Shown piece after piece: positions 30,519-48,734 of a DNA stretch of 64,000 bases. Origin of the DNA: an uncultured Bacteroides sp. (GTDB lineage: Bacteria > Bacteroidota > Bacteroidia > Bacteroidales > Bacteroidaceae). Location: the NCBI GenBank assembly GCA_949296855.1, contig CASFRN010000164.1, positions 8,127 to 72,126 of the forward strand, written 5' to 3'. The notes beneath the pieces were generated by a model. The model made no database searches. It was not told where the DNA came from and saw only the letters and a list, made by a program, of their open reading frames with translations. A program made the translations under genes and the position numbers. Numbering within the stretch: position 1 is the first letter of the stretch; each line of letters begins with the position of its first letter.

Positions 30519-30557
30519 CGTACAGATTAGAAACGTAAGAATGAGGAGGATAAAGCC

Positions 30558-30833
30558 ATGACCGAAAATTCAGCATTAGCCATGCAGCGCGAAGCGTTGA
30601 TAAACGAGTTGCGCAACGTTGATGACATCGATGTAATCCAAAAGACACAACGCTACCTTAACCGGGCTTTGACTGCGGTAAAGAAAGCGGCAAGCAAGGC
30701 AAAGGAAGAGGAAGAATACATTAGTAAGGAAGAGATAATGGACAGTTTGCGTGAATCGCTGACTGAAATGTACACTGCCCAACGGGACGGAATCAAACGT
30801 AAAACCTTGCAGGAAGTAATCGATGAATTATAG
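30558..30833 (+). CDS. Putative antitoxin (helical, acidic; partner of the downstream RelE/ParE-like toxin)
   Basis: 91 aa. Overlaps the toxin start by 11 nt. The call rests on position and size; the family was not recognised directly. Confidence 0.6.
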   Translation: MTENSALAMQREALINELRNVDDIDVIQKTQRYLNRALTAVKKAASKAKEEEEYISKEEIMDSLRESLTEMYTAQRDGIKRKTLQEVIDEL

Positions 30834-31191
30834 TATAATACCTGAGCCAAGGTTCTTGCGTGAGATGAAACGTTTGGCTAAAAAGTATAAGTCGATGAAG
30901 CAAGATTTACAGCGACTTAATGATGAGCTATTGGCAGACCCTACTTGCGGAGTAGATTTGGGTGAAGGTTTTCGTAAAGTACGTATGGCTATTGCCAGTA
31001 AAAACCGTGGTAAAAGCCATGGGGCAAGAGTCATTACTTATCTATATGCCATAAATGAAGTTGAAGGAAATATTAGTTTGTTGTCCATATACGACAAACA
31101 AGAAAAAGACAACATTTCCGAAGCGGAATTACGACAACTGAAAGCCGAAATCAAAGCCAAAGTGGGTATTACAAATAATCCGGTAGATTAG
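30823..31191 (+). CDS. RelE/ParE-superfamily toxin (Bacteroidales addiction-module toxin type)
   Basis: The pattern F...KRLAKKYKS...DL..L...L..P..G..LG.G..K.R......GKS.GARVI.Y...........LLSIYDK is typical of RelE-like toxins. Confidence 0.75.
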   Translation: MNYSIIPEPRFLREMKRLAKKYKSMKQDLQRLNDELLADPTCGVDLGEGFRKVRMAIASKNRGKSHGARVITYLYAINEVEGNISLLSIYDKQEKDNISEAELRQLKAEIKAKVGITNNPVD

Positions 31192-31200
31192 GTATTAACG

Positions 31201-31365
31201 ATGAAAAAGAGGATTAAACATACATCTTACAAGAAGCAAAAGTACGCCCCCAAGCGTACCTTAGCCGATGTATTGGATGAAAACTACATCAGTAAGAAAG
31301 ATTTAGAACGAAGATACCTCAGAGCCTTTACTCATATCAAGCCAAAAAAGAAGGCTGGAAACTGA
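31201..31365 (+). CDS. Unlisted 54-aa lysine-rich ORF inside the cassette
   Basis: Hand translation: MKKRIKHTSYKKQKYAPKRTLADVLDENYISKKDLERRYLRAFTHIKPKKKAGN, ending at the TGA at 31363-31365. Starts 9 nt after the toxin stop. Below the 60-aa cutoff of the ORF track. Confidence 0.4.
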   Translation: MKKRIKHTSYKKQKYAPKRTLADVLDENYISKKDLERRYLRAFTHIKPKKKAGN

Positions 31366-31404
31366 AATCAGCAAGAGAACTAATCAATGAACTATAGGAT
31401 TCTT

Positions 31405-31434
31405 TTCCCTTATTTCCACTAAGTCACAAGAGCA
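31405..31434. repeat. Right arm of the inverted repeat flanking the toxin-antitoxin cassette
   Basis: TTCCCTTATTTCCACTAAGTCACAAGAGCA. Its reverse complement matches 30475-30503. Confidence 0.85.
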
Positions 31435-31454
31435 TATAAAGCGAAAGGATATTA

Positions 31455-31468
31455 TTAACTTTTAATTT
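31455..31468 (+). promoter_or_regulatory. TTAACTTTTAATTT element exactly 10 nt upstream of the major pilin ATG
   Basis: An identical 14-mer lies at 33796-33809, also 10 nt upstream of the ATG at 33820. A near copy is at 33783-33795. Confidence 0.5.
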
Positions 31469-31478
31469 ATATGCGATT

Positions 31479-33653: not shown

Positions 33654-33672
33654 TAAGTTGAAATGAATAACC

Positions 33673-33755
33673 TTGTAGGGGCGTATTGCATACGCCCGAA
33701 AGCATACGCTTAAATTTGTTTATGCATTCAGGGCGTATGCGATACGCCCCTACAA
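33673..33755. terminator. Long hairpin (25-bp arms, 1 mismatch) between the major pilin and the anchor gene
   Basis: TTGTAGGGGCGTATTGCATACGCCC (33673-33697) pairs with GGGCGTATGCGATACGCCCCTACAA (33731-33755). Each arm is also self-complementary (GGGCGTAT/ATACGCCC). Confidence 0.7.
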
Positions 33756-33795
33756 TATAACGATGTACCCTAACTACACTATCAACTTTTAATTT

Positions 33796-33809
33796 TTAAC
33801 TTTTAATTT
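33796..33809 (+). promoter_or_regulatory. Second copy of TTAACTTTTAATTT, 10 nt upstream of the anchor pilin ATG
   Basis: Identical sequence and identical spacing to the copy at 31455-31468. Confidence 0.5.
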
Positions 33810-33819
33810 TTAATTGAAA

Positions 33820-34869
33820 ATGAACTTGCTTTACTCCATATACCATCATGTAGGACGGCTTTTACCGACTGTGGCAGCCCTCTTGTCTTTAGCTTCGTGC
33901 CATACTGTTTGGGATGATGACGACTGTCCCGTTGACATTGAGTATCGGGTAAAGTTCAAGTACGACTACAACATGCTCTTTACCGATGCGTTTGCCACAC
34001 AAGTGCAATCGGTTACCCTCTATGCGTTTGATGAACAAGGCAAACTGGTACTTCAGCAGTCCGAACAAGGCGAAGCGTTGAGCCGTAGCGATTATACCAT
34101 GAAGCTTGACCTTACTCCCGGCAATTATCGGCTGGTAGCATGGGCAGGCTTAGCGGAAGGCGACGCTTTCGAAGTGCCTGTAATGGATGAAGGGGTTTCG
34201 GTACAGGAAGACTTGACATGCCGCATCAACCGTTATCAGCGTACCTTGCACGGTGAGGAGATTGATTCGGTGGGCTATCTTCATTCGTTGTGGCATGGCA
34301 TGGCCGATACGCAATTGCAGCAATCGCGGGCAGAAGTGAATACGCAACTTGTTACCGTGCCTTTGATGAAGAACACCAATACTTTCCGCATCATTCTCCA
34401 GCAAATGGCGGAAGGGCAGATGGACGCATCAGCTTTTGAGTTTGCCATCACCGACGAGAACGGGATGATGACCCATGAAAATCGTGTGGTGGAAGGCGAT
34501 GGTGTGTTGACTTATATGCCTTATCATCAAGTGCAAGGCTCGACAGTGGTAGAAGGTGAAGCTTCGGAAGAACAACTGAACATGGTGGTGGCTGAACTGA
34601 CTACAGGAAGGCTGATGGCGGATGCCGGGACACGTCTTACTGTCTCCAACCGCGAGACGGGGGAGACTGTGCTTTCCATTCCTTTAATAGATTACTTGGA
34701 ACTCTGTAAGACGGTAGCCAACTACGATATGCCTTTGCAAGAGTATCTCGACCGTGAAGATACCTATAATATGACGTTCTTCCTCGATTCGGATAACGCT
34801 TGGATTAACACCCAAATCATTATCAATGACTGGATAGTCCGTTATAACGACATAACTCCCGACTTATGA
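33820..34869 (+). CDS. FimB/Mfa2-family pilus anchor/terminator subunit
   Basis: Lipobox LASC, followed by HTVWDDDDCP and VKFKYDYNM. C-terminal NDWIVRYNDI. The ATG at 33820 is preferred over the TTG at 33814. Confidence 0.75.
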   Translation: MNLLYSIYHHVGRLLPTVAALLSLASCHTVWDDDDCPVDIEYRVKFKYDYNMLFTDAFATQVQSVTLYAFDEQGKLVLQQSEQGEALSRSDYTMKLDLTPGNYRLVAWAGLAEGDAFEVPVMDEGVSVQEDLTCRINRYQRTLHGEEIDSVGYLHSLWHGMADTQLQQSRAEVNTQLVTVPLMKNTNTFRIILQQMAEGQMDASAFEFAITDENGMMTHENRVVEGDGVLTYMPYHQVQGSTVVEGEASEEQLNMVVAELTTGRLMADAGTRLTVSNRETGETVLSIPLIDYLELCKTVANYDMPLQEYLDREDTYNMTFFLDSDNAWINTQIIINDWIVRYNDITPDL

Positions 34870-35969
34870 TGAAAAGATGGTTTCTACATAGTATGGTTTG
34901 CCTGTTGGCGTTCATCGGGGTAGCTTGCTCGGACGATGCCGGAAACATGCCGATGGATAATGCCGGCAATGTAAGGCTTCGCTTGCAGTTGGCATTGCCT
35001 GCAGGCGGTGGCGTGTCGCGTACGGAAAGTTTTCTTGAGAATGGCGTTGGGTTGGAGAACTACATCGATTTTTTCGATGAAGACCGATACCGCATTTACT
35101 TTTTCAATTCCGATGATAAGTTTATAGCTCGGTTCATGCCTACCGTTGTAGATATGTCTTTAGAAAACCAGTATATTTTGTATCAGGTAGAAGGGGATGT
35201 GCCGGAAGAGCTTATGCCTCAATCGGGAACGATGGATTTTAAAATCGTAGTATTAGGCAACTGGGACACGTATCAAGAGCTGGTGGCAGAAAAAACCACT
35301 ATTGAACAACTATGCAAGGCAGATTGGGCTACGTTCGATTGTTTTACGGATGGTTTCGAATTGAGCAAACCCGGTAAACTGATACCGTTTTACGGTGTGC
35401 ATGAATACAAAGACATTGCCTTTGAAGATGGAAAGATTGTTAACTTGCCAGCTCCTGTCACTTTGCTCCGTGCTATGGCGAAAGTAGAGGTTGTGCTTGA
35501 AACGAAAGGGATGTCGTTCAGCAGTGTTTCCATTCAGGGGTATAACCAGGAAGGGTATTGTGCGCCAAGCGGTGTGGATTCGCAAGAGGATTATGATTAT
35601 GATGAAAACCGGCTTGCATTGCATTTGATAGGCGGTACAAATGATGAAGGTGCTGCTTCTCGATCTCTTCCTTTCCTGCATATCGAAGGAGAAGACAATG
35701 ACACTTGGATTGCTTATTTGCCGGAATATGATAATAGGAGTGATGAATCTGAAGCCGCACATATCGAAGTCCGTTTTGATATTCAGACAGAAGACGACGC
35801 AAAGGATTTTATAATCTATTTCTCTGATGACCAAGACGATAAAAGTAAAACATTTGATATCGTCCGCAATAATCTTTATCGTTTCAATGTAACGATAGAC
35901 CCGAAAGGCAAGTTGGCGATTGAAGTGAATAAGTGGGATGAAATTTTTGAAAACAATTTTATTTTCTAA
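34866..35969 (+). CDS. Accessory pilin-like lipoprotein (Mfa3/4-like position)
   Basis: Lipobox GVACS and the N-terminal strand VRLRLQLALP...SRT. Overlaps the upstream stop as ATGA. Confidence 0.6.
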   Translation: MMKRWFLHSMVCLLAFIGVACSDDAGNMPMDNAGNVRLRLQLALPAGGGVSRTESFLENGVGLENYIDFFDEDRYRIYFFNSDDKFIARFMPTVVDMSLENQYILYQVEGDVPEELMPQSGTMDFKIVVLGNWDTYQELVAEKTTIEQLCKADWATFDCFTDGFELSKPGKLIPFYGVHEYKDIAFEDGKIVNLPAPVTLLRAMAKVEVVLETKGMSFSSVSIQGYNQEGYCAPSGVDSQEDYDYDENRLALHLIGGTNDEGAASRSLPFLHIEGEDNDTWIAYLPEYDNRSDESEAAHIEVRFDIQTEDDAKDFIIYFSDDQDDKSKTFDIVRNNLYRFNVTIDPKGKLAIEVNKWDEIFENNFIF

Positions 35970-38359
35970 TGATTATGAAACATACTCTATACCTGTTGAT
36001 AGTGGTGCTGATAAGTGTATTGTCGGTAAGTTGTTCCGAAGAGAGACTGGCTGGCAGTGTGTCTTCTTCCGAATTTGAAGAAGGGGAATTGGTGTTGGCG
36101 TCTCTTCATTTATCAGTCAATGGCTTTGAGGTAAATGTACAGTCTGGTTCAAGAGCACCCGAAGATGAACCGACTCAAGAAGAACTTGCGGATGAAGAAA
36201 TTGCAATCCATAACATTTGGGTATTCCAGTTTAATACAAACGGTGACCAATTAATCAACCCGCGTTATTATGAGATTACCGATCAAGCTGAATTACAGGA
36301 TTTAAAAGTTTGGTTAAAGCCGGGTGTGGCTTCTACGGTTTACGTGGTGGCAAATACAGGCCAGCCCGATTGGATAAAGGAAAATACGGATGTCAGCACG
36401 CTTACAAAATTGGAATCATTGGATTTGTTTAACCTGGATCCTCAGTTTATCAATGAAGGGAAACCCTTGTCGCTTCCGATGGAAGGCAAGGAGGATAATG
36501 TAACTGTAAGTGAAGTGAGTGGGACACCGGAAAATAACGTCACGGTTCATGTGACACGTATGTTTGCTAAGTTGCAGGTAAAGGTGAGTATCACTCCAGC
36601 GAATATAAAGCTGCGGAATATTGCGATAAACCGCATTCCGTTAGTAAGTAAAATAAAGGAGCGGACAGGAGAGGGGGATGATAAGACTAATTATAATACA
36701 GGAGATAGAGGGTATTGGTACGATGACTTTTTTGATGAGTCAGATGACGTAAGTAAGACTTACGTAATGTATATGGCTGAAAATATGCAAGGCCGGATAG
36801 ACAATAATTCAGAAAAGGATGAGGAGAATGCTCCGGCAAATGCATTTGAAATAGGTGTAAATGTGATTCATACGAGTGTTGATGATGGTTCCACTACTTA
36901 TCCTACTTATAAAGTCTATCCGGGGCAAAATATGACGAACGACTTCAATATCAAGCGGAATTGCATTTATAATATCACGGTTAATATCGAACACGATGAG
37001 AAAGTCAATGTTCCTTCTTCCAATTGCTTTATTGTCATACCGGGTAGACTGTTAGCCTTCGAACCTTATTATCGCACGGAAACAGGCGGGGGATTTAGGA
37101 TTGAAGATTATTTGAATCCGGATGAGGAATCTAAAGCGATAGACCGGGTTTCTATTCTTTGGCAGACAGAAAATGCCATAGGTGATAATACAAGCGGAGA
37201 TTTGGTGTATTATGATAGCGGGCAGAAGAAAATTTATGTGAGAACTCAGGAAGGAAATGAAGGCAATGCTTTGATTGCGGCTTATAATAAAGCAGGTGAA
37301 ATTATTTGGTCATGGCACATTTGGGTAACAGGTAACGACCCGGCTAATCTAACTAATTCAATCCGGTATACTACGTATCGTTGGGATGAAAAGGGTATTT
37401 ATACGGAGGAACAGCGTGTGCCGGGATATCAAGTGATGTCATGCAATTTAGGTGCATTGGCAAATGAACCAGCAAATGCAACAGACACCAAACCTTTTGG
37501 TTTGCTGTATCAATGGGGACGGAAAGACCCTTTCCCGCCTGTTGAAGATGGAGGTGGTATTACTGAGTATGCATACGGTAAAGCTGTGCGTCGGATGTAT
37601 TATGACAATACCAATCGGGAGATTGTGGGAATAACTTCAGGTATTTATGGCGCGGACGCTACTTCAGGTAATAATCTTTTCTATTCCGTAATGGGGAATG
37701 CGCTTTCTCCCCAAGACCCGTTGATATATGCCATTCAGCATCCTACTGTGTTTATATGCGGTACAGCAGCGGATAGGCATTATACGGAATCTGCTTTACA
37801 ATCAGTAAGTAGTTATGCAAACAATGGAGATTGGAATTACAAGAGCAACGATGAATTGTGGGGTGGTAAAACTCCGGACAATAGTGGGAATATGAAAAAA
37901 TTGAATATCGGTACCGCAACCATATACAATAATTATGAAGGTACTGACAAGTCTATTTTTGACCCATGTCCGTATGGTTGGAGGGTTCCGCCTGGTGACT
38001 TTTGGTTAGGTTTTACTAAAACAGGAATAAATCCGACCACGTGGGAAGAGATTAATGTTTATGAGCCTGCTGGTTGGAATAAAAATTGGTGGGGAACATA
38101 CATATATTTGACCGATTGGAAAAATGGGAAGTATACTTATTTCCCCAATCAAGGGACACGTGTCAGCAGCGGATATGGTATAAGAGTGGGCCAGTGTGGA
38201 AATTATCACAATGCCACGACAGATGATGATAACAGAGTGAATATCTTACATATTCATAATGATTTTAGTTTATTCCATATATTTGAAACTGACTTTCGAT
38301 TCTATTACGTGAAGTCTGTTGCCGGTCCGATACGTTGTGTACGTGAATCGCAACAATGA
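35969..38359 (+). CDS. Pilus tip/adhesin candidate: pilin-like N-terminus fused to a FISUMP/DUF1566-like C-terminal domain
   Basis: Lipobox SVSC and the N-terminal strand LASLHLSV...SGSRA. The C-terminal half has LYQWGRKDPF, FDPCPYGWRVP and YFPNQGTR. An alternative ATG lies at 35975. Confidence 0.65.
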   Translation: MIMKHTLYLLIVVLISVLSVSCSEERLAGSVSSSEFEEGELVLASLHLSVNGFEVNVQSGSRAPEDEPTQEELADEEIAIHNIWVFQFNTNGDQLINPRYYEITDQAELQDLKVWLKPGVASTVYVVANTGQPDWIKENTDVSTLTKLESLDLFNLDPQFINEGKPLSLPMEGKEDNVTVSEVSGTPENNVTVHVTRMFAKLQVKVSITPANIKLRNIAINRIPLVSKIKERTGEGDDKTNYNTGDRGYWYDDFFDESDDVSKTYVMYMAENMQGRIDNNSEKDEENAPANAFEIGVNVIHTSVDDGSTTYPTYKVYPGQNMTNDFNIKRNCIYNITVNIEHDEKVNVPSSNCFIVIPGRLLAFEPYYRTETGGGFRIEDYLNPDEESKAIDRVSILWQTENAIGDNTSGDLVYYDSGQKKIYVRTQEGNEGNALIAAYNKAGEIIWSWHIWVTGNDPANLTNSIRYTTYRWDEKGIYTEEQRVPGYQVMSCNLGALANEPANATDTKPFGLLYQWGRKDPFPPVEDGGGITEYAYGKAVRRMYYDNTNREIVGITSGIYGADATSGNNLFYSVMGNALSPQDPLIYAIQHPTVFICGTAADRHYTESALQSVSSYANNGDWNYKSNDELWGGKTPDNSGNMKKLNIGTATIYNNYEGTDKSIFDPCPYGWRVPPGDFWLGFTKTGINPTTWEEINVYEPAGWNKNWWGTYIYLTDWKNGKYTYFPNQGTRVSSGYGIRVGQCGNYHNATTDDDNRVNILHIHNDFSLFHIFETDFRFYYVKSVAGPIRCVRESQQ

Positions 38360-38602
38360 TGTATTCATTTTCGTATGTGCTTTGGGATGAGTTCAAAACA
38401 GTTTCTTAGAAGATAAAAAATCTCTATCGCGAGGAGGTGTCCTCGTACATTTTACTTAAATTAGTAATCTATATTTAAGAATCGGTTCGCAGGGATGCGC
38501 GCCGGTTCTATTTTTTATCCTCTTCGGCAAACAGGATGATTCAGATTCTTTTTTCCTTTGCAGATAAGTGCTGTCTATCAACAAAATTTACATTAAAATC
38601 CT

Positions 38603-38610
38603 TACCTTTG
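38603..38610 (+). promoter_or_regulatory. Candidate -7 box (TACCTTTG) about 350 nt upstream of the caspase-locus first gene
   Basis: Matches TAnnTTTG. It lies downstream of an imperfect hairpin with a T-run at about 38481-38520 that probably ends the pilus operon. Confidence 0.45.
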
Positions 38611-38963
38611 TAAAAAATTATGGCTCACGATGAACGCTCTTTGCAAAACTTTTCCTATCTTTGAGCCGTTGCATAGTGCAACAGACATAATGTAGGAAGC
38701 GTTTAGCTTTATTCCATACTGATGAACTTCGACAACTCATTGCATATTGGAATAAGAAAGACGTTCTTCCTTTGGTGTGTTATATATGTTTCTCTACAGC
38801 ATATACAGCCAAAGGTGTGAGCCATTTCTTTATCTATATGCAAGGCAGTCGAAGGCCTATCAGTAGGATAAACTAATTGGCTCACACTTCTTTTTATGCC
38901 TGCCAATTAACTTTAGCCGCATCGTCGGGCCTTCGGTGCAACCACCTTAAATTACTTTTTATT

Positions 38964-39527
38964 ATGAGAATCAGCCCGCTTATTCTCGTTACCCTATTGG
39001 TCCTGTCGGCTTTTTCTGCTTGCAAAAGCAGCCGGAATATGACTGAGACCTTTACAGGGAAAGATTTCCCGTTCGATTCTGTTGTCGCCTCTTGGCTGGG
39101 CGACAGTGTGTGCGATGCGTTTCATACGCCTTCTTGGGTGTATGCATATAAGATGCGTCCGAAGCATGCCGAGACAGATACGCTTATCGGCGGATATGCT
39201 GTTGACTATGTTATTGGCAAGTTGGACGAATCGTGTTATGCACCTTTATTGTTTTTTTTGAAAGATACTGCCAATTACGTTTTAAGCGATGAAACGGTAA
39301 AGACATTGTTTTCGCCCAACATCGGATTTGAGTTCGCCAGCCCGAAGTATGGCAAGACTTATCTGCTGATAGCATTCAACGGCAGCCAGTTGCAGGTAGT
39401 CAGTCAAGACCGAACTGTCTTGCATAAACAATTTAAGAACAAGTATTTCCTCTTGCGCTTTGCCGAAAAACTGCTGCCCGGCAACGAGTTCATCCGAAGA
39501 GAATTATCCCGTAACCGTCAAAACTGA
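38964..39527 (+). CDS. Lipoprotein, function unknown
   Basis: The ATG at 38964 gives MRISPLILVTLLVLSAFSACKSS, a lipobox. The track start at 38877 is TTG and adds a non-signal extension. Confidence 0.65.
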   Translation: MRISPLILVTLLVLSAFSACKSSRNMTETFTGKDFPFDSVVASWLGDSVCDAFHTPSWVYAYKMRPKHAETDTLIGGYAVDYVIGKLDESCYAPLLFFLKDTANYVLSDETVKTLFSPNIGFEFASPKYGKTYLLIAFNGSQLQVVSQDRTVLHKQFKNKYFLLRFAEKLLPGNEFIRRELSRNRQN

Positions 39528-39532
39528 AAATC

Positions 39533-40669
39533 ATGAAACACATTCGCTTGTTTATAGCTTGCGTAGCGATGACGCTCTGCGTTTCGCTGAAAGCACAGAC
39601 TTTCCATGCCATTCTTTTCGCTGACACGAACGATAAACGCATCGGCAAAAGTACAGCCATCGACCTGAACAATGTCAGCAACATGCTGGTAGAGGCACAA
39701 AGCTCCCTGAAAGGAAAAATGGAGTTCGTTTATTATGTTTACCCCGGCAATTATTGTTCTCCGCAGAATCTGAGGAAAGTGTTAGACAACATCCGTTGCC
39801 AGTCGGACGATGTGGTGTTTTTTTATTATAGCGGGCATGGAGGACGCTCCATGCAAGACACTTCCCCTTATCCGCAAATGTGCTTGGGGCAGCGCGACGA
39901 GTCGAAGATGATTTCGGTAGAAGGCTTAGACCGTGCCCTTGCCCGCAAGAATCCCCGCTTGCGCTTTGTCATTACAGACTGCTGCAATTCGGAAGACGAG
40001 GATATTACGCCTAAGCTGGAAATCAGCAGAGGAAGTTCCATGGTCAGTTCGAAAACGGAGCGTAATTACGCGAAACTCTTCCTGGGCAAGTACGGAAATG
40101 TCATTGTGACTTCGAGCAAAGCGGGAGAGACTTCCTCCGGCAATAATGTGAGAGGGGGACGCTTTACTTACTGTTTGCTTGCCGTGCTCGAAAATGCCAT
40201 CCGGCAAGACGTAACCGACTGGCAACTCATTATGGATGCCGTAAAAGAAGGCACCGCCGAGTATTCTTCTGGCGAGATGCATCCGTTTGGCGAAGTGCAT
40301 GTAAGTGCTACTCCGCCTGTTGCCGCCCAGCCTGAACCGGAAACTGCTCCGGCTCCTGTGCAAGAAGAAGTAGCCACGCAAGACGTGTTGTTGCCCGACC
40401 TTTTGAAGCTGGTGGATACCAGTATCGGTGCGTCGAAACGTCTGAATATGGTAACTCCTCTTTTACGGAAGCATTTTGCCAACGGCAATGTCATCGTAGA
40501 AGCCTTGGGCAAAGACAGCCGTACGGTGGTCAATCAGGAAACTGCCCAAGAGTTTTTGGAACGGCTGAGCACCTCTTTCTTCTTGGTCAACTTCAATATC
40601 TTGTCCGTAGAGCGGGACAGCAACCGGAAGATTACCTCATTAAGAATTCACGAAGTGTATAAACAATAA
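39533..40669 (+). CDS. Exported caspase-like (peptidase C14) protein with a Pro-rich linker and a C-terminal domain of about 90 aa of unknown function
   Basis: Signal peptide MKHIRLFIACVAMTLCVSLKAQ. Catalytic His in FFYYSGHGG (codon 39836-39838). Catalytic Cys in VITDCCNS (codons 39980-39985). Linker PPVAAQPEPETAPAPV. Confidence 0.8.
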   Translation: MKHIRLFIACVAMTLCVSLKAQTFHAILFADTNDKRIGKSTAIDLNNVSNMLVEAQSSLKGKMEFVYYVYPGNYCSPQNLRKVLDNIRCQSDDVVFFYYSGHGGRSMQDTSPYPQMCLGQRDESKMISVEGLDRALARKNPRLRFVITDCCNSEDEDITPKLEISRGSSMVSSKTERNYAKLFLGKYGNVIVTSSKAGETSSGNNVRGGRFTYCLLAVLENAIRQDVTDWQLIMDAVKEGTAEYSSGEMHPFGEVHVSATPPVAAQPEPETAPAPVQEEVATQDVLLPDLLKLVDTSIGASKRLNMVTPLLRKHFANGNVIVEALGKDSRTVVNQETAQEFLERLSTSFFLVNFNILSVERDSNRKITSLRIHEVYKQ

Positions 40670-40683
40670 AACAAGGATAGAAA

Positions 40684-41136
40684 ATGAAAAAGATTTTACT
40701 TGCTGTATGGTGCAGCCTGATGGTTGCCTTTACAATGAATGCGCAGACATCGTCGGGAAACGAAGTGGTAGATGAAATATTGAAAAGAGATGATGTGTCC
40801 ACATTAGAAAAAGGATTTGCTCAAAAAGGGATTGAAGCAAAAGTCCGGATTTATTTTGAATCGAAACAAAATGAACTCATATATAGTTTCCGTGTTTTCG
40901 ATGCAGATGTGTATGATGTGCTTGATGTAGACCAATTGTTATCTGTTTTTGTAACAGGGACACTCGAAGGGTGTAAGACAGCGGATGGAACAGGGAATTG
41001 GATGGTATGGATAAGCAATGAATTCAAGCGTACCGATACGGGTATTCGGATGGAAATTCTCTATGGCAATCAAAAGAAAACTGCATCCGTTACAGCTGAT
41101 GAAATAATAGATATCGCTTACAAAATGTTTCAATAA
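40684..41136 (+). CDS. Exported protein, function unknown
   Basis: Signal peptide MKKILLAVWCSLMVAFTMNAQ. Lies 14 nt after the upstream stop. Confidence 0.6.
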   Translation: MKKILLAVWCSLMVAFTMNAQTSSGNEVVDEILKRDDVSTLEKGFAQKGIEAKVRIYFESKQNELIYSFRVFDADVYDVLDVDQLLSVFVTGTLEGCKTADGTGNWMVWISNEFKRTDTGIRMEILYGNQKKTASVTADEIIDIAYKMFQ

Positions 41137-41148
41137 TAGCATCATTTT

Positions 41149-41754
41149 ATGAAAAAACTGATTATCACTTTCATGATTATACTTGTTGCATGGGGATGGA
41201 CAATTCCGCTCCGTGCACAGACCAATGACTTGAGTCCGGAAGAATTGGAAATGTTCCGTACGGAAGTAAAGAACCGGACGAACCGCTTCCAAATGTACTT
41301 AACGTTTATCGGGAGCAAGAAGAACGATTTGAATACGAAGAAAGCTTATATTAAGCAAGCCTTGCAATTGTTTATCGGTAAAGGCGAAAAATACGAAGAT
41401 GGATACGGCAATGTCCAACCTGCCGTAGGGATGGAGACTACCTCCAAATATAAGAAGAAAAAGTCGTGGCAACTGACAAAACAATATCTGAACCGGTTGG
41501 CTAATATGACTTACAAGGAAATAGAAATCACATGGGTTGATACCTGCCGTGTAAGCAATTTCTATAAGGTAAAAGACGGGCTGTATACCGCTACGGTTAC
41601 CGTTTCGCAACGTTTTGCCGGTTATCGGGATAACGGAGGCTATACTGATACGACAGTCAAGACCATAGAGATTTTCTTGGAAGAATACCTGACTCCTGTA
41701 GGCAGAAGGTATCGCATCCTTTTCGGAGACATTGAAGCCCTTGAAACTTATTGA
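41149..41754 (+). CDS. Exported protein, function unknown
   Basis: Signal peptide MKKLIITFMIILVAWGWTIPLRAQ. Lies 12 nt after the upstream stop. Confidence 0.6.
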   Translation: MKKLIITFMIILVAWGWTIPLRAQTNDLSPEELEMFRTEVKNRTNRFQMYLTFIGSKKNDLNTKKAYIKQALQLFIGKGEKYEDGYGNVQPAVGMETTSKYKKKKSWQLTKQYLNRLANMTYKEIEITWVDTCRVSNFYKVKDGLYTATVTVSQRFAGYRDNGGYTDTTVKTIEIFLEEYLTPVGRRYRILFGDIEALETY

Positions 41755-41759
41755 AAGCC

Positions 41760-42572
41760 ATGAAACGAATATTACTCTCGCTGATAAGCGTATTGTGTGT
41801 CTGTCCGCTGTGCATAGGGCAGACTGCATTGCCCGACTCTGTTTGGCAAACTGAATTTAACTTCCGTGTAAAACAATTGGATGAGTTTATGGCACGGTTT
41901 AACGGAGAAGAGGCTGTAGATGTCAACGTGGCGGATTCGTTAAAACGTCCGTTGAATCTGCTTTATTTGTTCGACCGTGAACTATTTGCCTCCAACCGTG
42001 ATTCTATGTTGCAGAAGGTAAACGCTTTTATAGATACTGTAATTACTCAGCGGAATGCCTTATGTTATGAAGACGGGGGCTGGTTTGCCGAAGTGGGTTG
42101 TAACTGTATATATAAAGGTAAGAAAGATACGCTTACCCTTTATTTGAAGCCGGAAAAGATAGAAGAGTTCCAATACCGTTGGGTGGTTATCGGTGCTAAA
42201 GGCAAGTTGCTTCAGCTGATACCAGCCAAGCGGAACCGTGGCTTGGATATTCTGCCTAATAATCATGAAGTGTCTTTCCGTGCCTTGTCGAAAATCGCTC
42301 AGTTAGGAAGTAACAACATCCTGAATTATGCCGAGCGTGATTATGTGCCCGACGGGCTTTCCGCTTTTTATGCGTTGGTTTATTCCGATGCTTTGAAGAT
42401 AGAGACTACGGGGCAAATTACCTATCATTTCCTTGAAGTGCCCGGTTATGTGTTTACCGTAGAACGGTTTAACCGGAAAGGGACTAATACCGGTTGGCTG
42501 ATTTCACGGCTTATCCCTATGCACGAAACAGAAAAACAAGCTTATTACAATCAATTTTTAAAAACCGAATGA
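41760..42572 (+). CDS. Exported protein, function unknown
   Basis: The ATG at 41760 gives MKRILLSLISVLCVCPLCIGQ. The track start at 41751 is TTG and overlaps the upstream stop. Confidence 0.6.
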   Translation: MKRILLSLISVLCVCPLCIGQTALPDSVWQTEFNFRVKQLDEFMARFNGEEAVDVNVADSLKRPLNLLYLFDRELFASNRDSMLQKVNAFIDTVITQRNALCYEDGGWFAEVGCNCIYKGKKDTLTLYLKPEKIEEFQYRWVVIGAKGKLLQLIPAKRNRGLDILPNNHEVSFRALSKIAQLGSNNILNYAERDYVPDGLSAFYALVYSDALKIETTGQITYHFLEVPGYVFTVERFNRKGTNTGWLISRLIPMHETEKQAYYNQFLKTE

Positions 42573-44281
42573 CCATGAAGAAGATTCTTTTATACATTTG
42601 TTTGTTATGGCTGCCTTCTGTGGCATTTGCGGAGCAGGCTTTAAGCGTTGAACAAAGGCAAAGGGTTGAGGCTGCCGTCAAGACCTATTTTGAACGGCTT
42701 GCACGTTATGTCGCAGAGCCGATGGGTGCGGAAGCCGGACAAATCAGTTTCGATATTTCAGAAATGTTCGAAAACCGATTGGATGCTCCGGTTTACAATG
42801 ACTTGGTGGCGTTGAAAGACAAAACAGGCATAGATGCCTCTTGTACCATCAGTGATTACTTGCTTTCTTTTGGTCCGTTGAGCGAGAAATACGGCTACAA
42901 GTTCCGTATCACTTACGATTCTATCGTATGTCATCCGTTGGTGGAACCCAGCAATGACAATGCGATGAATGCGTTGGTTTATGTGAGGAAACATATTGAT
43001 GGGGGCGGTGTGTCGGAGACATTGACCAACGTGATTCGTTATAATTTGAATACGGACAAGTTGTCCTACATAGAGAAATCTTCTTTCACCACAAGCGATG
43101 AAGACATCAATTTCTTGTTGGAGAACCATTATGGTTATAGTACGGCTAAGCTAAATGAAATGGCTGCCCGCTGTTTTCAAGAAAAGAAATACAAGCAAGC
43201 CTATCAGTTGTACGAACAGGCAGCCATACGCGATGACATGGATGCCCAATATGCTTTGGCGAATATGTTATGGAAGCGGCAAGGGTGTGAAGAGTACGGT
43301 TTGTTTGCTACCGTCAATATGACGAAGTTTTGGTTGAAGAAGATTTATTTCAAGTATATTGGAGCTAAAATTGGCGTTAAACTACCAAATATGGGAATTT
43401 ATAAGCCTGTTCAAGAAATGATAAGTCTTGTTTTTCAGGATGAACATAGATTCTATACCGACTATGAAGATAGACCGTTTAATTCCGGATTGATGAAATA
43501 TAAAGTTCCAGGAAAAGAATTATATGGATTTTTTAACACGAAGGGGGAAATGGTGATTCCTGCCCAATATTCTGATGCTTTGGCTTTTTCGGATGGATTA
43601 GCACGGGTTAAAATTTCAGGTAAATGTGGATATATCAATACAAAAGGTGAACTTGTTATTCCTGCTATATACAGAAGTGCATCTCCTTTTATAAATGGAA
43701 CAGCTTCAGTTTCGTATCAAGATGCTAAAGGTTTAATATTGTTTATCATTAATAAGAAAGGGGAAAAAATTTCGGAAGATTTTGATGACATTATTCAGAT
43801 ACAACGTAGGGAGGATATATTAACGGCGGCAAGACGAGGAAAGAAATGGGGATTTATTAATAGCCTTGGAAAAATCAAAATGCCATTCATTTATGATGAG
43901 GTTGATAAGTCACGGACTTGGGCCAATACATCTTCAGACCATTTCATTGCGATTTGCCAAAACGGGAAATGGGGCTTTATTGATACGAGTTCATCGGAAG
44001 GGAAGATTATTGTGCCGCCTCAATATAAAAACGTTGGCAGTTTCTTTTTTGGCATGGCCTGGGTAAATGATGGAAAAAACATTTCATTTATCGATAAGAC
44101 AGGTAAGATTGTGTGCACCGGAATCAAACAATGTACAGATTTTAATGCCAATGGTTTGGCTGGTGTCAAATTTGAATTGAATAGTAAAAAAGGTTACTTG
44201 ATTAATAAACGAGGTGAAGTCGTTTATTATTATGATGCTGGCGAAGATGGAAAGATATATAATCTCCGGAGAAAAGAATAA
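42569..44281 (+). CDS. Exported protein with an unknown N-terminal domain, a Sel1-like repeat and multiple WG (KWG-type) beta repeats
   Basis: The ATG at 42569 overlaps the upstream stop as ATGA and gives MTMKKILLYICLLWLPSVAFAEQ. Sel1-like segment YEQAAIRDDMDAQYALANMLW. WG repeats KWGFINSLGKIKMPFIYDEV, KWGFIDTS...IVPPQYKNV and GYINTKGELVIPAIY. Confidence 0.75.
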   Translation: MTMKKILLYICLLWLPSVAFAEQALSVEQRQRVEAAVKTYFERLARYVAEPMGAEAGQISFDISEMFENRLDAPVYNDLVALKDKTGIDASCTISDYLLSFGPLSEKYGYKFRITYDSIVCHPLVEPSNDNAMNALVYVRKHIDGGGVSETLTNVIRYNLNTDKLSYIEKSSFTTSDEDINFLLENHYGYSTAKLNEMAARCFQEKKYKQAYQLYEQAAIRDDMDAQYALANMLWKRQGCEEYGLFATVNMTKFWLKKIYFKYIGAKIGVKLPNMGIYKPVQEMISLVFQDEHRFYTDYEDRPFNSGLMKYKVPGKELYGFFNTKGEMVIPAQYSDALAFSDGLARVKISGKCGYINTKGELVIPAIYRSASPFINGTASVSYQDAKGLILFIINKKGEKISEDFDDIIQIQRREDILTAARRGKKWGFINSLGKIKMPFIYDEVDKSRTWANTSSDHFIAICQNGKWGFIDTSSSEGKIIVPPQYKNVGSFFFGMAWVNDGKNISFIDKTGKIVCTGIKQCTDFNANGLAGVKFELNSKKGYLINKRGEVVYYYDAGEDGKIYNLRRKE

Positions 44282-44298
44282 TTTGGCATAATGAAACT

Positions 44299-44337
44299 GG
44301 TCTGCCTTTTGCTGCGAAAAGATGCAAGAGGCAGACC
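44299..44337 (+). terminator. Hairpin after the caspase-locus operon
   Basis: GGTCTGCCT (44299-44307) pairs with AGGCAGACC (44329-44337), a 9-bp perfect stem. No T-run follows. Confidence 0.55.
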
Positions 44338-44448
44338 CATTTAAAGGGTTTATAAAGCTTTCGTATTTCTACTCTTATCTCTAATGCGTTTGTGATTCTG
44401 TAAAACATATCAACGCTCGATTTATTGTACCGTTCTTGATATATGGTA

Positions 44449-44532
44449 ATTCGCTTGAAAAAATGTTATGTAATGCGTGAGATTCGCTTGAAAAAATGTA
44501 GTTAAGCTTATGTTATTCGTTCGAAAAAGTGT
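44449..44532. repeat. Three direct repeats of an 18-mer at 33-bp spacing upstream of the AAA ATPase gene
   Basis: ATTCGCTTGAAAAAATGT at 44449-44466 and 44482-44499, and the variant ATTCGTTCGAAAAAGTGT at 44515-44532. The last copy abuts the -7 box. Confidence 0.85.
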
Positions 44533-44539
44533 AATTTTG
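44532..44539 (+). promoter_or_regulatory. Candidate -7 box (TAATTTTG) for the AAA ATPase gene
   Basis: Matches TAnnTTTG and lies 24 nt upstream of the ATG at 44563. Confidence 0.5.
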
Positions 44540-44562
44540 CATGGAACGAATAGAATCATGTT

Positions 44563-45948
44563 ATGCTCAGAAGAAAAATAGAAACAGTTTTGGCCGAGTG
44601 GAAGAAATCCGAAAACAGAAAACCTCTCGTGATAAAAGGCATACGCCAATGTGGGAAGACATACATAGTACAAAAATTCGCAAGGGAGAATTACGGGAAT
44701 GTGGTTTATATGAATTTCATTCTCGAACCGGACAAGAAATCTGCTTTTACAGGTAATTTAGATGTCAATACCATTATTCTCAATTTATCTGCTTTGATTC
44801 AGGGTAGCCGTTTCGTTAGTGGAAAAACATGCATTATCCTTGACGAAATTCAAGAATGCAAGGAGGCAAGGACTGCTTTGAAGTCCTTTCATATAGACGG
44901 GCGTTTCGACATCATTGCCACAGGTTCTCTTTTAGGAGTGAAAGGTTACGGTAAGAACAAGAAGAAAAACGAAGGGGATGAAGGACAAGATTCAGTTCCT
45001 GTAGGGTATGAAACTGTAGTAGATATGTATCCGTTGGATTTTGAAGAATTTCTATGGGCAAACGGAATCAGTGATACGGTTATTGGTTCTGTTAAATCAT
45101 GTTTTGAAAGTGAGAAGGCTGTTCCTGACGGCATTCACAAAGCTATGATGGAATTGTTGTACAGATATGTTATAGTAGGGGGGCTGCCGGAAGCGGTGAA
45201 CTGTTTTCTCGAAACCAAGAATATTGAACTTATATACAAGGTGCAGCGTAATCTTATTGCCGGTTACGAAGAAGATATGGTCAAGTATGCGGATGATACA
45301 GACAAGCCACATATCCGGGAATGTTTCGAGTCCGTTCCGAGACAATTGGCCAGAGAGAATAAGAAATTCCAGTATTCCGTAGTCAAAAAGGGCGGAAGGG
45401 CATCGCAATATATCGGCAGTATCCAATGGCTGGAAGATGCCGGAATAGTCCGGAGATGTTACAATACGCAGATTACGGAACTGCCGTTAGAAGGCAATGC
45501 CATACAGGATTGCTTTAAGGTGTACACCACAGATATAGGTATCTTCATGGCAATGCTTGACTATGGAACTCAGGCAGACATCTTAAAGGGGAATCTTTTG
45601 GGATACAAGGGTGCTATTTTTGAAAACCTAATGGCTGATTTTTTGTGCAAGTCCGGACAAAAATTATATTATTTTCATAAAGATAGCGGGCTTGAACTAG
45701 ACTTCTTGGTGAGATTTAACAATGAATGCGTCATACTTGAAGTGAAAGCAAAGGGTGGTAAGGCAAAAAGCATGGCTACGGTTCTTAAAAATAAAGATGT
45801 ATATCATGTCAAAAGTGCAATTAAGCTGGGACAATATAATGTTGGGCGTGAAGGAGAGGTACTTACCGTTCCGCTTTATATGGGATTTCTTATTGAGGAT
45901 AAGCTTGCGGATGCTGTTATTCCCGATATAGATTTAAGCGGGTTATAG
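44563..45948 (+). CDS. AAA-family ATPase with a DUF4143-like C-terminal domain
   Basis: Walker A GIRQCGKTY and Walker B CIILDEIQ. The 461-aa architecture is common as a stand-alone Bacteroidales ATP-binding protein. Confidence 0.8.
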   Translation: MLRRKIETVLAEWKKSENRKPLVIKGIRQCGKTYIVQKFARENYGNVVYMNFILEPDKKSAFTGNLDVNTIILNLSALIQGSRFVSGKTCIILDEIQECKEARTALKSFHIDGRFDIIATGSLLGVKGYGKNKKKNEGDEGQDSVPVGYETVVDMYPLDFEEFLWANGISDTVIGSVKSCFESEKAVPDGIHKAMMELLYRYVIVGGLPEAVNCFLETKNIELIYKVQRNLIAGYEEDMVKYADDTDKPHIRECFESVPRQLARENKKFQYSVVKKGGRASQYIGSIQWLEDAGIVRRCYNTQITELPLEGNAIQDCFKVYTTDIGIFMAMLDYGTQADILKGNLLGYKGAIFENLMADFLCKSGQKLYYFHKDSGLELDFLVRFNNECVILEVKAKGGKAKSMATVLKNKDVYHVKSAIKLGQYNVGREGEVLTVPLYMGFLIEDKLADAVIPDIDLSGL

Positions 45949-46010
45949 TGAATCATAGCGTTGCTATGTGCATAACGGCTTATAATTAGTTTATATTATA
46001 GGTATACAAA

Positions 46011-46081
46011 CACAGAAGACCACACATTTACATTTGCTTATGCTATGCAGCATAGAAAAATAAAATCTGTGTTCTTCTGTG
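46011..46081. terminator. Imperfect palindrome between the convergent ATPase and alaS genes (CACAGA-type family)
   Basis: CACAGAAGACCACACAT (46011-46027) pairs with ATCTGTGTTCTTCTGTG (46065-46081). An inner hairpin reads CTATGC-A-GCATAG. Confidence 0.6.
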
Positions 46082-46115
46082 TAATCTGTGTGCTATCGGA
46101 AGCACAACCGGATGG

Positions 46116-48734
46116 TTAGAATCCTGCCAATTCCAGCACTTTATCTACAGCGGCGCTCAGTCCGTCGGGGTTCTTTCCTCCGGCAGTAGCGAAGTGAGGT
46201 TGTCCGCCTCCGCCTCCTTGAATCAGCTTGGCGGCTTCGCGTACCAATTGACCGGCATTCAGTCCGGCTTTCACTTGGTCGTCACTCATAATAACCGTCA
46301 GCATCGGTTTGTCTCCGAAGATGCTTCCGATGACTACGAACAGGTTTTCGGGGAACTGTCCTTTCAGTTGGAAAGCAATGTTCTTGATGGCTTCGGGGCG
46401 CATCGGCAGCATGGCTTTAATGACTTTTACGCCGTGTATTTCTTTGGCGCTTTCAATCAGTCTTGACTTAGCGCTCGCTTCCCGTTCTTTCATGAACTCT
46501 TCCATCTGCTTTTTCAGTCCGGCGTTTTCGTCGACATATTTTGCAATGGCAATCTTTAAGTCGGGCGCATTGTTGAAGAGGGCTTTCAAGTCGTTCATGG
46601 TGTCTTGCAGGACATCCATCATTTCTTCCACTTTTGCACCGGTAATGGCTTCGATACGGCGTACGCCCGCAGCTACCGAGCTTTCAGAAAGTATCTTCAC
46701 CATACCGATTTTACCGGTAGCCGATACATGAGTACCTCCACAGAACTCGATGGATGAACCGAATTGCACAACGCGCACTTCATCGCCGTATTTTTCGCCG
46801 AAGAGGGCAATGGCTCCTAATTCTTTGGCTTTTTCAATCGGGAGGTTACGGTATTCGGTCAAGGGGATGTCTTCACGGATTTTGGCATTGACTAAATGCT
46901 CTACTTCGCGCAACTGTTCGGGAGTTACTTTTTGGAAGTGTGAGAAGTCGAAACGCAATGATTCCGGAGTAACCAATGAACCTTTCTGCTCTACGTGCGT
47001 GCCTAATACTTGGCGCAATGCTTCATCAAGCAAGTGGGTGCAAGAGTGGTTGGCTGCACAAGCGGCACGTTTGTCGGTGTCTACACACGCCATCATCGGG
47101 GCGTCGAGATGTTCAGGAAGCTGCTTGGCGATATGAATCGGAAGGTTGTTTTCTTTCTTGGTGTCAATGATATCGATGGTCTCGAATTCGCTGACCAATA
47201 CACCCGTGTCGCCTACCTGACCGCCGCTTTCGGCATAGAACGGCGTTTCGCTCAATACGATTTGATACAGTGTCTGGTTCTTCTGCTTGATTTGGCGGTA
47301 GCGCAGGATACGGGTTTCGTATTCGGTATAGTCGTAGCCGACGAATTTTGTTTCGCCTTCTTCCAATACCACCCAGTCGCTTGCCTCAATGGCTGCGGCA
47401 TTGCGGGCACGCTCTTTTTGCTTTTGCATTTCAATGTTGAACTCTTCTTCGTTCACTGTCATGCCGTTCTCACGAAGAATCAGTTCGGTCAAGTCAAGCG
47501 GGAATCCGAATGTGTCGTATAATGTAAAGGCATCTACGCCGCTGATTTCTGTCTTTCCGGCAGCCTTGGTGTCGTTCATCACTTTGTCGAGCAGGCGGAT
47601 GCCGGTTTCCAGTGTGCGCAAGAAAGCTTCTTCTTCTTCTTTGATGACTTTTTCAATTAGGGTTTGCTGTGCTTTCAGTTCAGGATATGCCTGTCCCATA
47701 TTCTCTATCAGTACGGGGACGAGCTTGAACATGAAGGGTTGCTTTTGTCCTAAGAACGTGTATGCATACCGCACGGCACGGCGCAAGATACGGCGGATAA
47801 CGTAACCGGCTTTGGCATTCGAAGGCAGCTGGCCATCGGTAATAGAGAATGCAATGGTGCGGATGTGGTCTGCCACTACACGCATGGCTACGTCTGTTTT
47901 CGGGTCTTTGCCGTAGGTAGTGCCAGCCAAATCGCCGATGACTTTGATGATGGGTTGGAACACATCGGTATCGTAGTTCGATTTCTTTCCTTGCAATGCC
48001 ATGCAGAGGCGTTCGAAGCCCATGCCAGTATCGATAACCTTGGCAGGAAGCGGTTCGAGCGAACCGTCTGCCTTGCGGTTGTATTGCATGAACACAAGGT
48101 TCCATATTTCGATAACCTGCGGGTTATCTTTGTTTACCAGTTCACGCCCGGGCACTTTTGCCTTTTCTTCTTCCGAGCGCAAGTCGATATGGATTTCCGA
48201 GCAAGGTCCGCAAGGTCCCGTGTCGCCCATTTCCCAGAAGTTATCGTGCTTGTTCCCGTTGATGATGTGGTCTTTGGGTAAGTATTGTTCCCAGTATCCG
48301 GCTGCTTCGTTATCCCGTTCCAGCCCTTCTTCGGGGCTTCCTTCGAACACGGTAGCATAAAGGATGTCGGGATTGATTTTCAATACATCTACTAAGAATT
48401 CCCATGCCCAACTGATGGCTTCTTTCTTGAAGTAGTCGCCGAATGACCAGTTGCCCAACATTTCGAACATGGTGTGGTGGTAGGTATCATGGCCTACTTC
48501 TTCCAAGTCGTTGTGCTTTCCGCTTACTCGCAGGCATTTCTGCGAGTCGGTCACACGTCTGTATTTAGCCGGATGGTTTCCCAGGATGATGTCTTTAAAC
48601 TGGTTCATACCGGCATTGGTAAACATCAGCGTAGGGTCGTCTTTGATGACCATCGGTGCCGAAGGCACAATCTGATGTCCTTTTGACTCAAAGAATTTTA
48701 CGAATGAGTCGCGGATTTCGTTTGCTGTCAACAT
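46116..48734 (-). CDS. alaS: Alanine--tRNA ligase
   Basis: 872 aa, starting [20 protein letters not shown]. Class II motifs and a C-terminal editing/DHHA1-like region are present. Confidence 0.97.

Follow-up and report, generated by a model that had tools for sequence, protein, structure and literature searches.

Bacterial homologues of caspases have been studied almost wholly as cytoplasmic enzymes of cell death and immunity. Sel1, TPR and beta-propeller repeat partners are typical of the prokaryotic members, and a survey of 2012 noted, without explaining them, prokaryotic metacaspases with probable signal peptides and Sel1/TPR partners (PMC3501461). The view of extracytoplasmic caspase homologues as poorly understood, from which a sequence-only reading of the DNA described here had started, agrees with this literature. 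The present analysis concerns a stretch of 64,000 nucleotides from an uncultured Bacteroides sp. (assembly GCA_949296855.1, contig CASFRN010000164.1, positions 8,127 to 72,126 of the forward strand), referred to below as the window, and an operon of six genes, g1 to g6, at its positions 38964-44281. The second gene, g2, encodes a caspase-like protease, which belongs here to a fixed, widespread and, as predicted, fully exported cassette. On balance, we favour the view that the products assemble into a periplasmic protease complex associated with the outer membrane, in which the enzyme has a cognate lipoprotein partner, NTF2-type subunits serve for docking and exchangeable subunits for recognition.

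Among the described systems, metacaspases and orthocaspases (MEROPS C14B) share with g2 the fold family and a His-Cys dyad located in SGHG and DCC motifs, and their repeat partners recall those of the cassette. Unlike the usual enzymes of this group, g2 is predicted to be exported by a cleavable Sec signal, carries a family-specific C-terminal domain, and belongs to a fixed cassette of five genes whose other products are likewise exported and have no described families. A similar arrangement of genes is known from Bfp-Bfi, in which the gene of an exported C10 cysteine protease shares a transcript with that of a small partner, exported or a lipoprotein, only a few nucleotides away; the partner is thought to guard the envelope of the producer (PMC2873492). 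As in Bfp-Bfi and in staphopain-staphostatin, the small partner gene g1 is tightly and conservedly adjacent to the protease gene (median gap, -1 nt). The differences are that Bfp-Bfi and staphopain belong to clan CA and g2 to clan CD, that the cassette has four further conserved subunits, and that g1 has no detectable similarity to staphostatins. Gasdermin/caspase and CHAT/TPR immune systems resemble the cassette in having a caspase-fold protease beside a partner of about 270 aa and repeat sensors, as well as in their accessory distribution. These systems are cytoplasmic, whereas all components of the cassette are predicted to be exported; g5 displays neither the fold nor the sequence of a gasdermin, and an NTPase or CRISPR component is lacking. 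No description of the cassette or of the g1, g4 and g5 families was found in the literature on exported or periplasmic bacterial caspases.

The six open reading frames (ORFs) of the operon are all located on the plus strand and are separated by 5, 14, 12, 5 and -4 nt:

38964-39527, plus strand: g1, lipoprotein of 187 aa with the lipobox AFSAC
39533-40669, plus strand: g2, predicted exported caspase/metacaspase-like cysteine protease of 378 aa (Pfam Peptidase_C14)
40684-41136, plus strand: g3, predicted exported protein of 150 aa (MNA-Q), no Pfam or NCBIfam match
41149-41754, plus strand: g4, predicted exported protein of 201 aa (LRA-Q), no Pfam or NCBIfam match
41760-42572, plus strand: g5, predicted exported protein of 270 aa (CIG-Q), no Pfam or NCBIfam match
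42569-44281, plus strand: g6, predicted exported protein of 570 aa with four WG_beta_rep stretches above threshold and a sub-threshold TPR/Sel1-like repeat

This layout is the one reported in the sequence-only reading, namely six consecutive same-strand genes with gaps of no more than 14 nt or overlaps. That reading had also found no motif in the three small proteins, g3, g4 and g5, which the profile searches bear out; the sizes it gave for them were right for the first two (150 and 201 aa), while the third has 270 aa and not 271. Alternative starts are present for g5 (TTG at 41751) and g6 (ATG at 42575, resulting in 568 aa).

The order g1, caspase, g4, g5 and a protein with the N-terminal domain of g6 (N-domain) is kept in about 50 Bacteroidales species. 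The survey covered one genome per species and yielded 79 loci, identified below by L numbers, in all of which ORFs were called and iterative searches were made with each of the window proteins. Across the core loci, the median gaps between g1, the caspase gene, g4, g5 and g6 were -1, 11, 6 and -1.5 nt. With about 50 independent genomes sharing both the order and the tight spacing, the cassette is not a product of chance. Its carriers are spread over gut, rumen and oral Bacteroidales and include Prevotella/Segatella, Muribaculaceae, Bacteroides ilei, Tannerella, Paludibacteraceae and Porphyromonadaceae. Co-conservation, on which the sequence-only reading had staked its interpretation, was thus found for g1, g2, g4, g5 and the g6-type gene; g3 alone is sporadic. 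The flanking genes are wholly different between lineages, and these unrelated chromosomal contexts indicate that the cassette travels as a self-contained unit. For example, its neighbours in B. muris and L091 are housekeeping genes, while in L089 (1118-3352) it forms an island with a CHAT-TPR protein, a primase-like BT4734 gene and HTH/AAA_25 mobile-element genes. The CHAT-TPR protein of L089 is a second caspase-fold protease, of the cytoplasmic type. A phage origin of the cassette was considered and rejected, as no relatives of g5 were found in IMG/VR viral contigs. One locus, L025, is labelled 'Lachnospiraceae bacterium' and has the same cassette and gene sizes as the Bacteroidales contig L026; the label is probably a binning error of a metagenome-assembled genome.

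The assignment of g2 to the caspase fold was made by comparison with Pfam, where Peptidase_C14 (PF00656) was matched at E 4.9e-14 (53 bits, cut-off 21.4). The intact dyad lies exactly where the sequence-only reading had placed it, in the motifs SGHG (39830-39841) and DCCNS (39977-39991), with His102 encoded at 39836-39838 and Cys151 at 39983-39985. Both residues were invariant in an alignment of 24 sequences, and each was retained in 51 of the 52 syntenic orthologues; the dead protease domain that the same reading had kept in mind is therefore not what the orthologues display. The score of g2 against NCBIfam NF047832 ('caspase, EACC1-associated type') was 38.6 bits, far under the cut-off of 140. 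Judged by these profiles, g2 is a member of Peptidase C14 and not of the EACC1-associated type. The nearest solved sequences are those of the plant metacaspases MC9 and MC4, matched weakly (E 6e-6) in an alignment that spans only the region around the catalytic His. Full-length relatives of g2 numbered 76 at E <= 1e-5, and the few with a source name were Bacteroidales. The protein is composed of the following parts:

aa 1-21, plus strand: signal peptide with the end LKA-Q, called by our own heuristic
aa 22 to about 253, plus strand: catalytic domain, which holds His102 and Cys151
40292-40357 (about aa 254-275), plus strand: Pro-rich linker
40358-40666 (aa 276-378), plus strand: C-terminal domain of about 100 aa

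The mature protein starts right at the first strand of the catalytic domain, and the Pro-rich linker followed by a C-terminal domain is present as had been described earlier. Two identities proposed for the latter domain were rejected. Its position in Prevotella scaffolds is that of TonB_C, but the hhalign probability of a relationship to TonB_C was 1%, and no profile match in Pfam or NCBIfam identified it as a secretion domain of the type IX secretion system (T9SS).

The gene of the lipoprotein, g1, has homologues directly 5' of the caspase gene in 40 core loci, with all 40 gaps not exceeding 30 nt and the genes often overlapping. The lipidation residue of its lipobox, Cys20, is at least 90% conserved among orthologues. 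In the rest of the sequence g1 is far more divergent than the protease, the mean column identities being 18% and 33%, respectively. Comparison of the g1 profile with PDB sequences gave nothing beyond signal-peptide noise (E >= 0.3), and no Pfam match was obtained. Tandem g1-caspase pairs are present in two Bacteroidales loci, L065 and L072, and a profile without signal peptides also detected g1-like genes ahead of the exported caspases of Thiotrichaceae (E 1e-9 to 1e-11). These features make g1 the cognate partner of the protease and a candidate for its inhibitor, anchor or chaperone.

Caspases with signal-peptide-like hydrophobic N-termini were also observed outside the Bacteroidales, that is in Thiotrichaceae (L057, L059, L061 and L062) and, apparently, in Chlamydiia (L069) and Treponemataceae (L071). 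The Thiotrichaceae proteins have in common the motif (signal peptide)-TLHAIxVxDTND and occur as tandem copies with a g1-like gene directly before; looser versions of this motif are present in the Chlamydiia and Treponemataceae proteins. An exported caspase with a g1-like gene may represent an older two-gene module.

Each of the six N-termini encoded in the operon has a basic n-region and a hydrophobic core. The signals of g2 to g5 end in A/G-Q and that of g6 in AFA-EQ, and the Gln at the cleavage site is invariant among orthologues in g4 (Q24) and g5 (Q21). A Gln in this position corresponds to the Q-rule described for signal peptidase I substrates of Bacteroidetes (PMC5837995). The claim of the sequence-only reading that every product starts with a signal peptide or lipobox is thereby upheld and extends to the orthologues. 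Its contrary possibility, uncleaved anchors facing the cytoplasm, does not agree with the invariant Gln in g4 and g5 and the conserved lipobox Cys of g1.

The same reading had left open whether the module is periplasmic or surface-located, and here the two halves of the claim part. The lipoprotein export signal for surface exposure in Bacteroides, as defined in PMC6222051, was searched for as at least two D/E residues at +2 to +6; it was present in 0 of 39 g1 orthologues, the sequence in the window being C-KSSRN. A T9SS C-terminal secretion domain of the Por_Secre_tail type was found in none of the six proteins with Pfam and NCBIfam at E <= 1. The C-terminus of g6-type proteins in other lineages is formed by an outer-membrane protein (OMP) barrel or TonB_C. 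Because of these three observations, the module is probably periplasmic and located at the inner face of the outer membrane, and a place on the surface is disfavoured. This bears on an explanation that we consider very unlikely, according to which the protease is secreted or carried on the surface or in vesicles and digests host or dietary proteins, with the Sel1, WG and BACON parts binding host molecules. Such domains are found in host-interaction proteins, BACON fusions are present in this family, and all carriers of the cassette are host-associated Bacteroidales; the C10 and C11 proteases of Bacteroides are likewise surface or secreted enzymes (PMC2873492). Yet the lack of the acidic export signal in g1 speaks against it, as does the fact that the other five proteins appear to be plain signal peptidase I substrates without a T9SS C-terminal domain, and the OMP-barrel and TonB_C fusions put the N-terminal parts of their proteins in the periplasm.

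The putative docking subunits were characterised mainly by structure prediction. The AlphaFold2 model of g4, a protein found in 56 loci, had a pLDDT of 77.9 and a pTM of 0.73. In a Foldseek comparison with the PDB, all of the top 50 matches were NTF2-like (probability 0.5-1.00, best E 1.6e-3, target-normalised TM about 0.4-0.55). The model superposes on the NTF2-like CaMKII hub, on Mtr2-Mex67 and on beta subunits of ring-hydroxylating dioxygenases with probabilities of up to 1.00, and differs from them in being some 40-50 residues longer than the matched chains (mostly about 110-190) and in lacking membership of an NTF2 family at the sequence level; oligomerisation of g4 is conjectural. A profile search with the g4 sequence gave no PDB match, and a Pfam scan of 40 g4 members only scattered noise. 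Thus, g4 models as an NTF2-like fold recognised by structure prediction and not by sequence family.

The model of g5 was confident (pLDDT 88.3, pTM 0.80) and without a structural neighbour, the best PDB match being at E 0.018 with TM < 0.25 and the best BFVD match at E 0.01; its fold is possibly new. The family is large: among 1.84 billion representatives, it accounts for 1061 clusters at 50% identity (E <= 1e-3). A separate homologue search with g4 and g5 concatenated yielded relatives of g5 only. A role of g5 as a gasdermin-like substrate was rejected, because no gasdermin was present among the PDB fold matches and there was no PADLOC match. The gene is always linked to g4. In Muribaculaceae and others, g5 and a g4-like domain are naturally fused in one protein, in both orders, and across four conspecific strains the g4 and g5 alleles change together.

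Comparison of the mature parts with hhalign, with signal peptides stripped, related g4 to the N-domain of g6 (58% probability, E 1e-4) and to the C-terminal domain of the caspase (41% probability). The g4-like domain of the fusion proteins was linked both to g4 (98% probability) and to the caspase C-terminal domain (78% probability). Some Prevotella g6-type proteins also terminate in the latter domain (E 1e-16 to 1e-22). When the six operon proteins were compared by BLASTP, nothing but signal-peptide noise was detected, and g1, g3 and g5 proved unrelated to the g4-type domain. According to these profile comparisons, three of the six proteins (g2 at its C-terminus, g4, and g6 in its N-domain) probably have one domain type in common. 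That the C-terminal domain and the small proteins might share a fold had been raised in the sequence-only reading; this is borne out in part, in that g4 has an NTF2-like model to which the caspase C-terminal domain and the g6 N-domain are weakly related, and does not apply to g1, g3 and g5. The occurrence of several NTF2-like modules in one system suggests a docking of subunits.

The largest protein of the operon, g6, consists of the following parts:

42632-43153 (about aa 22-195), plus strand: N-domain, weakly related to g4 by hhalign
about 43154-43318, plus strand: Sel1/TPR-like repeat (TPR_3, E 0.004)
about 43511-44248, plus strand: WG repeats, about seven (WG_beta_rep)

WG_beta_rep (PF14903) was matched at E 2.9e-37 (126.8 bits) with four stretches above threshold, in line with the minimum of four WG repeats counted earlier, and about seven repeats are visible by eye. 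The Sel1-like repeat noted at the same time is Sel1-like by reading and has true counterparts in related proteins; the sequence itself gave no above-threshold Sel1 match and only a sub-threshold one to TPR_3 (aa 199-220). The g6-type proteins from other lineages carry true Sel1/TPR repeats behind the same N-domain and then OMP_b-brl_2, TonB_C (E 2e-22; one lineage) or BACON. The seventh gene of sister strains, considered below, contains clear Sel1 repeats. Bacteroidetes scaffolds of the PorE type combine TPR, a beta-propeller and an outer-membrane/peptidoglycan anchor. Compared with this general description, the g6 family is similar in possessing TPR/Sel1 and beta-rich repeats or an envelope anchor (OMP barrel or TonB_C), and differs by the cassette-specific N-domain and by the lack of a T9SS context. 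Another family of about 250-300 aa, unannotated and without a Pfam match, follows the g6-type gene in 17 loci (L006, L013, L014, L017, L022 and others), about 3.5 kb past the caspase gene; it is not present in the window.

Common domains and common inheritance could also be explained by self-maturation, in which g4, g5 and/or g6 are substrates that the caspase trims to build an outer-membrane-anchored structure, with no other target. Dedicated maturation proteases are often encoded beside their substrates, and gingipain trims the type V pilins FimA and Mfa1. The strict co-inheritance of the protease with g4 and g5, the domains common to the protease and its putative substrates, and the OMP-barrel anchors on g6-type proteins would all fit. 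We regard this explanation as improbable, since caspase alleles combine freely with different g4/g5 and g6 alleles, which is at odds with tight enzyme-substrate co-evolution, and since neither g4 nor g5 accompanies the g1-caspase pairs of L065, L072 and Thiotrichaceae. No conserved basic cleavage motif was seen either, although no search for one was made.

Strains of the species represented by the window differ strongly in the part of the cassette that begins behind the caspase gene:

40700-44500: allelic replacement block, comprising g3-g6 and the insertion/deletion site 44282-44500

The window and L001 were identical in DNA sequence from the pilus operon upstream of g1 through the caspase stop codon, save two mismatches over 4.8 kb (35900-40700). 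Across g3-g6 their identity was 52-87% per 100-nt segment, and it returned to 99-100% at about 44500. Within the insertion/deletion site, L001 has, unlike the window, the extra seventh gene (g7) of sister strains, which encodes a Sel1-repeat protein of 366 aa. The four conspecific contigs represent four different allele combinations, made up of two caspase alleles (84% identical), g3 alleles that are 57-82% identical or no g3, two g4/g5 types, three g6 types, and a seventh gene that is present or absent. Within the block, dS was 0.8-1.9 compared with 0.02-0.06 in the flank, and dN/dS was 0.1-0.35. Positive selection on the variable genes was rejected, as these dN/dS values give no gene-wide signal. 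The combination of high dS and low dN/dS therefore points to old alleles shuffled by recombination and not to fast positive selection. The shuffling of g3-g6, and sometimes g7, suggests that the target of the protease is not the same in all strains or is of extracellular origin.

The highest dN/dS of the cassette, 0.33-0.36, belonged to g3. Among the loci searched, this gene was found only in the lineage of the window and in L033, and it is missing from the conspecific contigs L086 and L087. A gene of 150 aa is present at its position in L091; identity between the two was not compared. Thus, g3 is a sporadic, lineage-specific accessory gene.

Two further features of the allele comparison were observed. 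On the alaS side (44500-47000), the window and L001 were only about 98.3% identical, which suggests that the left segment, with the pilus tip gene, g1 and the caspase gene, was very recently transferred or swept. Within g6 alleles that are otherwise 57-80% identical, a 100-nt island (43174-43273) has 98% DNA identity; it spans the Sel1/TPR-like repeat and has the appearance of a tract left by gene conversion or recombination.

The strain comparison also bears on the genes that precede g1. The cassette begins 600 nt past a pilus operon that ends in a FimD-like tip adhesin gene, and g2 could accordingly be imagined as a maturation protease for this adjacent type V pilus (28398-38359), replacing the Arg-gingipain of Porphyromonas. 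The pilins of such pili have to be cut after Arg, and a basic residue at P1 is what metacaspase-like enzymes prefer. Pilin processing is, however, thought to happen at the cell surface, while the module appears to be periplasmic; no pilus genes were present beside the cassette in any other lineage, and L086 and L087 retain the cassette without the whole pilus operon. We therefore hold this explanation to be extremely improbable; by the synteny in other lineages and these two contigs, a functional tie to the pilus operon was rejected.

A possible, though rather unlikely, explanation of the cassette is envelope surveillance or defence. Here the complex would sense foreign periplasmic proteins, such as phage ejection proteins, bacteriocins entering via TonB-dependent transporters, or effectors of type VI secretion systems (T6SS); the variable g3-g6 would be the sensors, and the caspase would destroy the intruder or kill the cell, as a periplasmic counterpart of cytoplasmic caspase/CHAT immune proteases. 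In a more specific form, which we rate as unlikely, exchangeable NTF2/TPR/WG sensors would detect phage, bacteriocin or contact-dependent effector proteins and free a lipoprotein-restrained caspase-like protease, with destruction of the intruder or envelope suicide as the outcome. Caspase-based immunity in bacteria would then, if this is true, reach into the extracytoplasmic compartment. The patchy, accessory-like spread revealed by the species scan (B. ilei, Segatella copri, S. hominis and Palleniella muris but not the classic model Bacteroides) agrees with such a function, as do the deep allelic mosaics of the sensor-side genes beside near-identical flanks, the presence or absence of g3 and of g7, the TonB_C fusion in one lineage, and the island of L089 with its CHAT-TPR protein and mobile-element genes. 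The next gene of the window is a PADLOC candidate, PDC-S01; this adjacency is weak evidence for defence because AAA_14/DUF4143 genes, to which it belongs, are very common in Bacteroidales. On the other side, PADLOC gave no system match for the cassette and no match for any accessory protein, its sole hit being that of a generic caspase model at E 2e-7. The housekeeping neighbourhoods in B. muris and L091 and the dN/dS values well under 1 also speak against defence, while the failure to find g5 on viral contigs is neutral. We know of no defence system that works in the periplasm in this way.

The evidence is best accommodated, in our opinion, by the periplasmic protease complex proposed at the outset. 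Judging from the sequences and their conservation among orthologues, the six products cross the inner membrane via Sec; g1 is lipidated and faces the periplasm, and the others are cut by signal peptidase I before Gln. The metacaspase-like cysteine protease g2 would be the sole enzyme of a self-contained complex. Being translationally coupled to the protease and paired with it one-to-one, g1 may hold it at the membrane and/or keep it inactive; the model for this role is the exported inhibitors that share transcripts with the C10 proteases of Bacteroides (PMC2873492). The NTF2-like domains of g2, g4 and g6 may dock the subunits together, and g4 and g5 would act as a pair, as their natural fusions indicate. 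The repeat part of g6 (WG here; elsewhere Sel1/TPR with an OMP barrel, TonB_C or BACON) may recognise a ligand or substrate or provide a tether to the outer membrane. Judging from the relationship to metacaspases, the protease probably cleaves its target after Arg or Lys.

Several points weigh against this model. The caspase C-terminal domain, g4 and the g6 N-domain are only weakly linked (hhalign probabilities of 41-78%), and the caspase domain aligns with the N-terminal half of g4 only. No similarity of g1 to any known inhibitor, staphostatins included, was detectable, and both the inhibitor and the docking roles are ones that we infer. A candidate S1 residue, Asp34 in the TND motif past strand 1, is present in only 43 of the 52 orthologues. 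The signal-peptide calls are those of our own heuristic combined with conservation among orthologues. Finally, dN/dS values of 0.1-0.35 correspond to purifying selection within alleles, and the diversity of the block could have come by introgression from related species.

Candidate promoters of the operon were revealed by a pattern scan for the Bacteroides-type -7 box, TAnnTTTG:

38603-38610, plus strand: -7 box matching the consensus, candidate operon promoter
38656-38663, plus strand: second -7 box matching the consensus, candidate operon promoter

Both fall in the 600-nt gap 5' of g1. The same scan detected no box in the five short intergenic gaps; the operon itself contains a single match, at 42593, in the coding sequence of g6 and 24 nt past its start. 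The following box, at 44532, is located just ahead of the gene after the operon. A scan for sigma-70 promoters and terminators was uninformative, as it is for Bacteroidales.

The surroundings of the operon contain several further features. The gene 3' of it (44563-45948), which has the -7 box at 44532 as its own, encodes an AAA_14/DUF4143 ATPase and matches the candidate defence family PDC-S01 of PADLOC at E 1.6e-153. The pilus operon at 28398-38359 is a complete one of the type V (Mfa/FimA-like) kind, with DUF3575, DUF3868, Fimbrillin_C, Mfa2 and the FimD-like tip adhesin. It varies between strains, and in L086 and L087 NRPS (non-ribosomal peptide synthetase), nitroreductase and glyoxalase genes directly precede g1. 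A small NRPS cluster, here in a Bacteroidales of the gut type, is present in the window at 11855-27220. Its bimodular NRPS of 2288 aa (C-A-T-C-A-T, 19791-26657) has a nitroreductase gene behind it and, ahead of it, genes for a WD40 protein, two sensor kinases and a TonB-dependent receptor. An Rfam scan of the window found two tRNAs only (62446-62637), distant from the operon, of equal length, with identical Rfam scores and 50 nt apart.

The carriers of the cassette belong to the dominant bacterial order of mammalian guts. They include the cultured Segatella hominis, Bacteroides ilei, Bacteroides muris and Palleniella muris, and the cassette thus offers a concrete, testable system for the roles of caspase-fold proteases outside the cytoplasm. 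The shuffling of its alleles at the strain level points to strain-variable interactions and bears on colonisation, on resistance to phages and competitors, and on strain typing of gut Bacteroidales.

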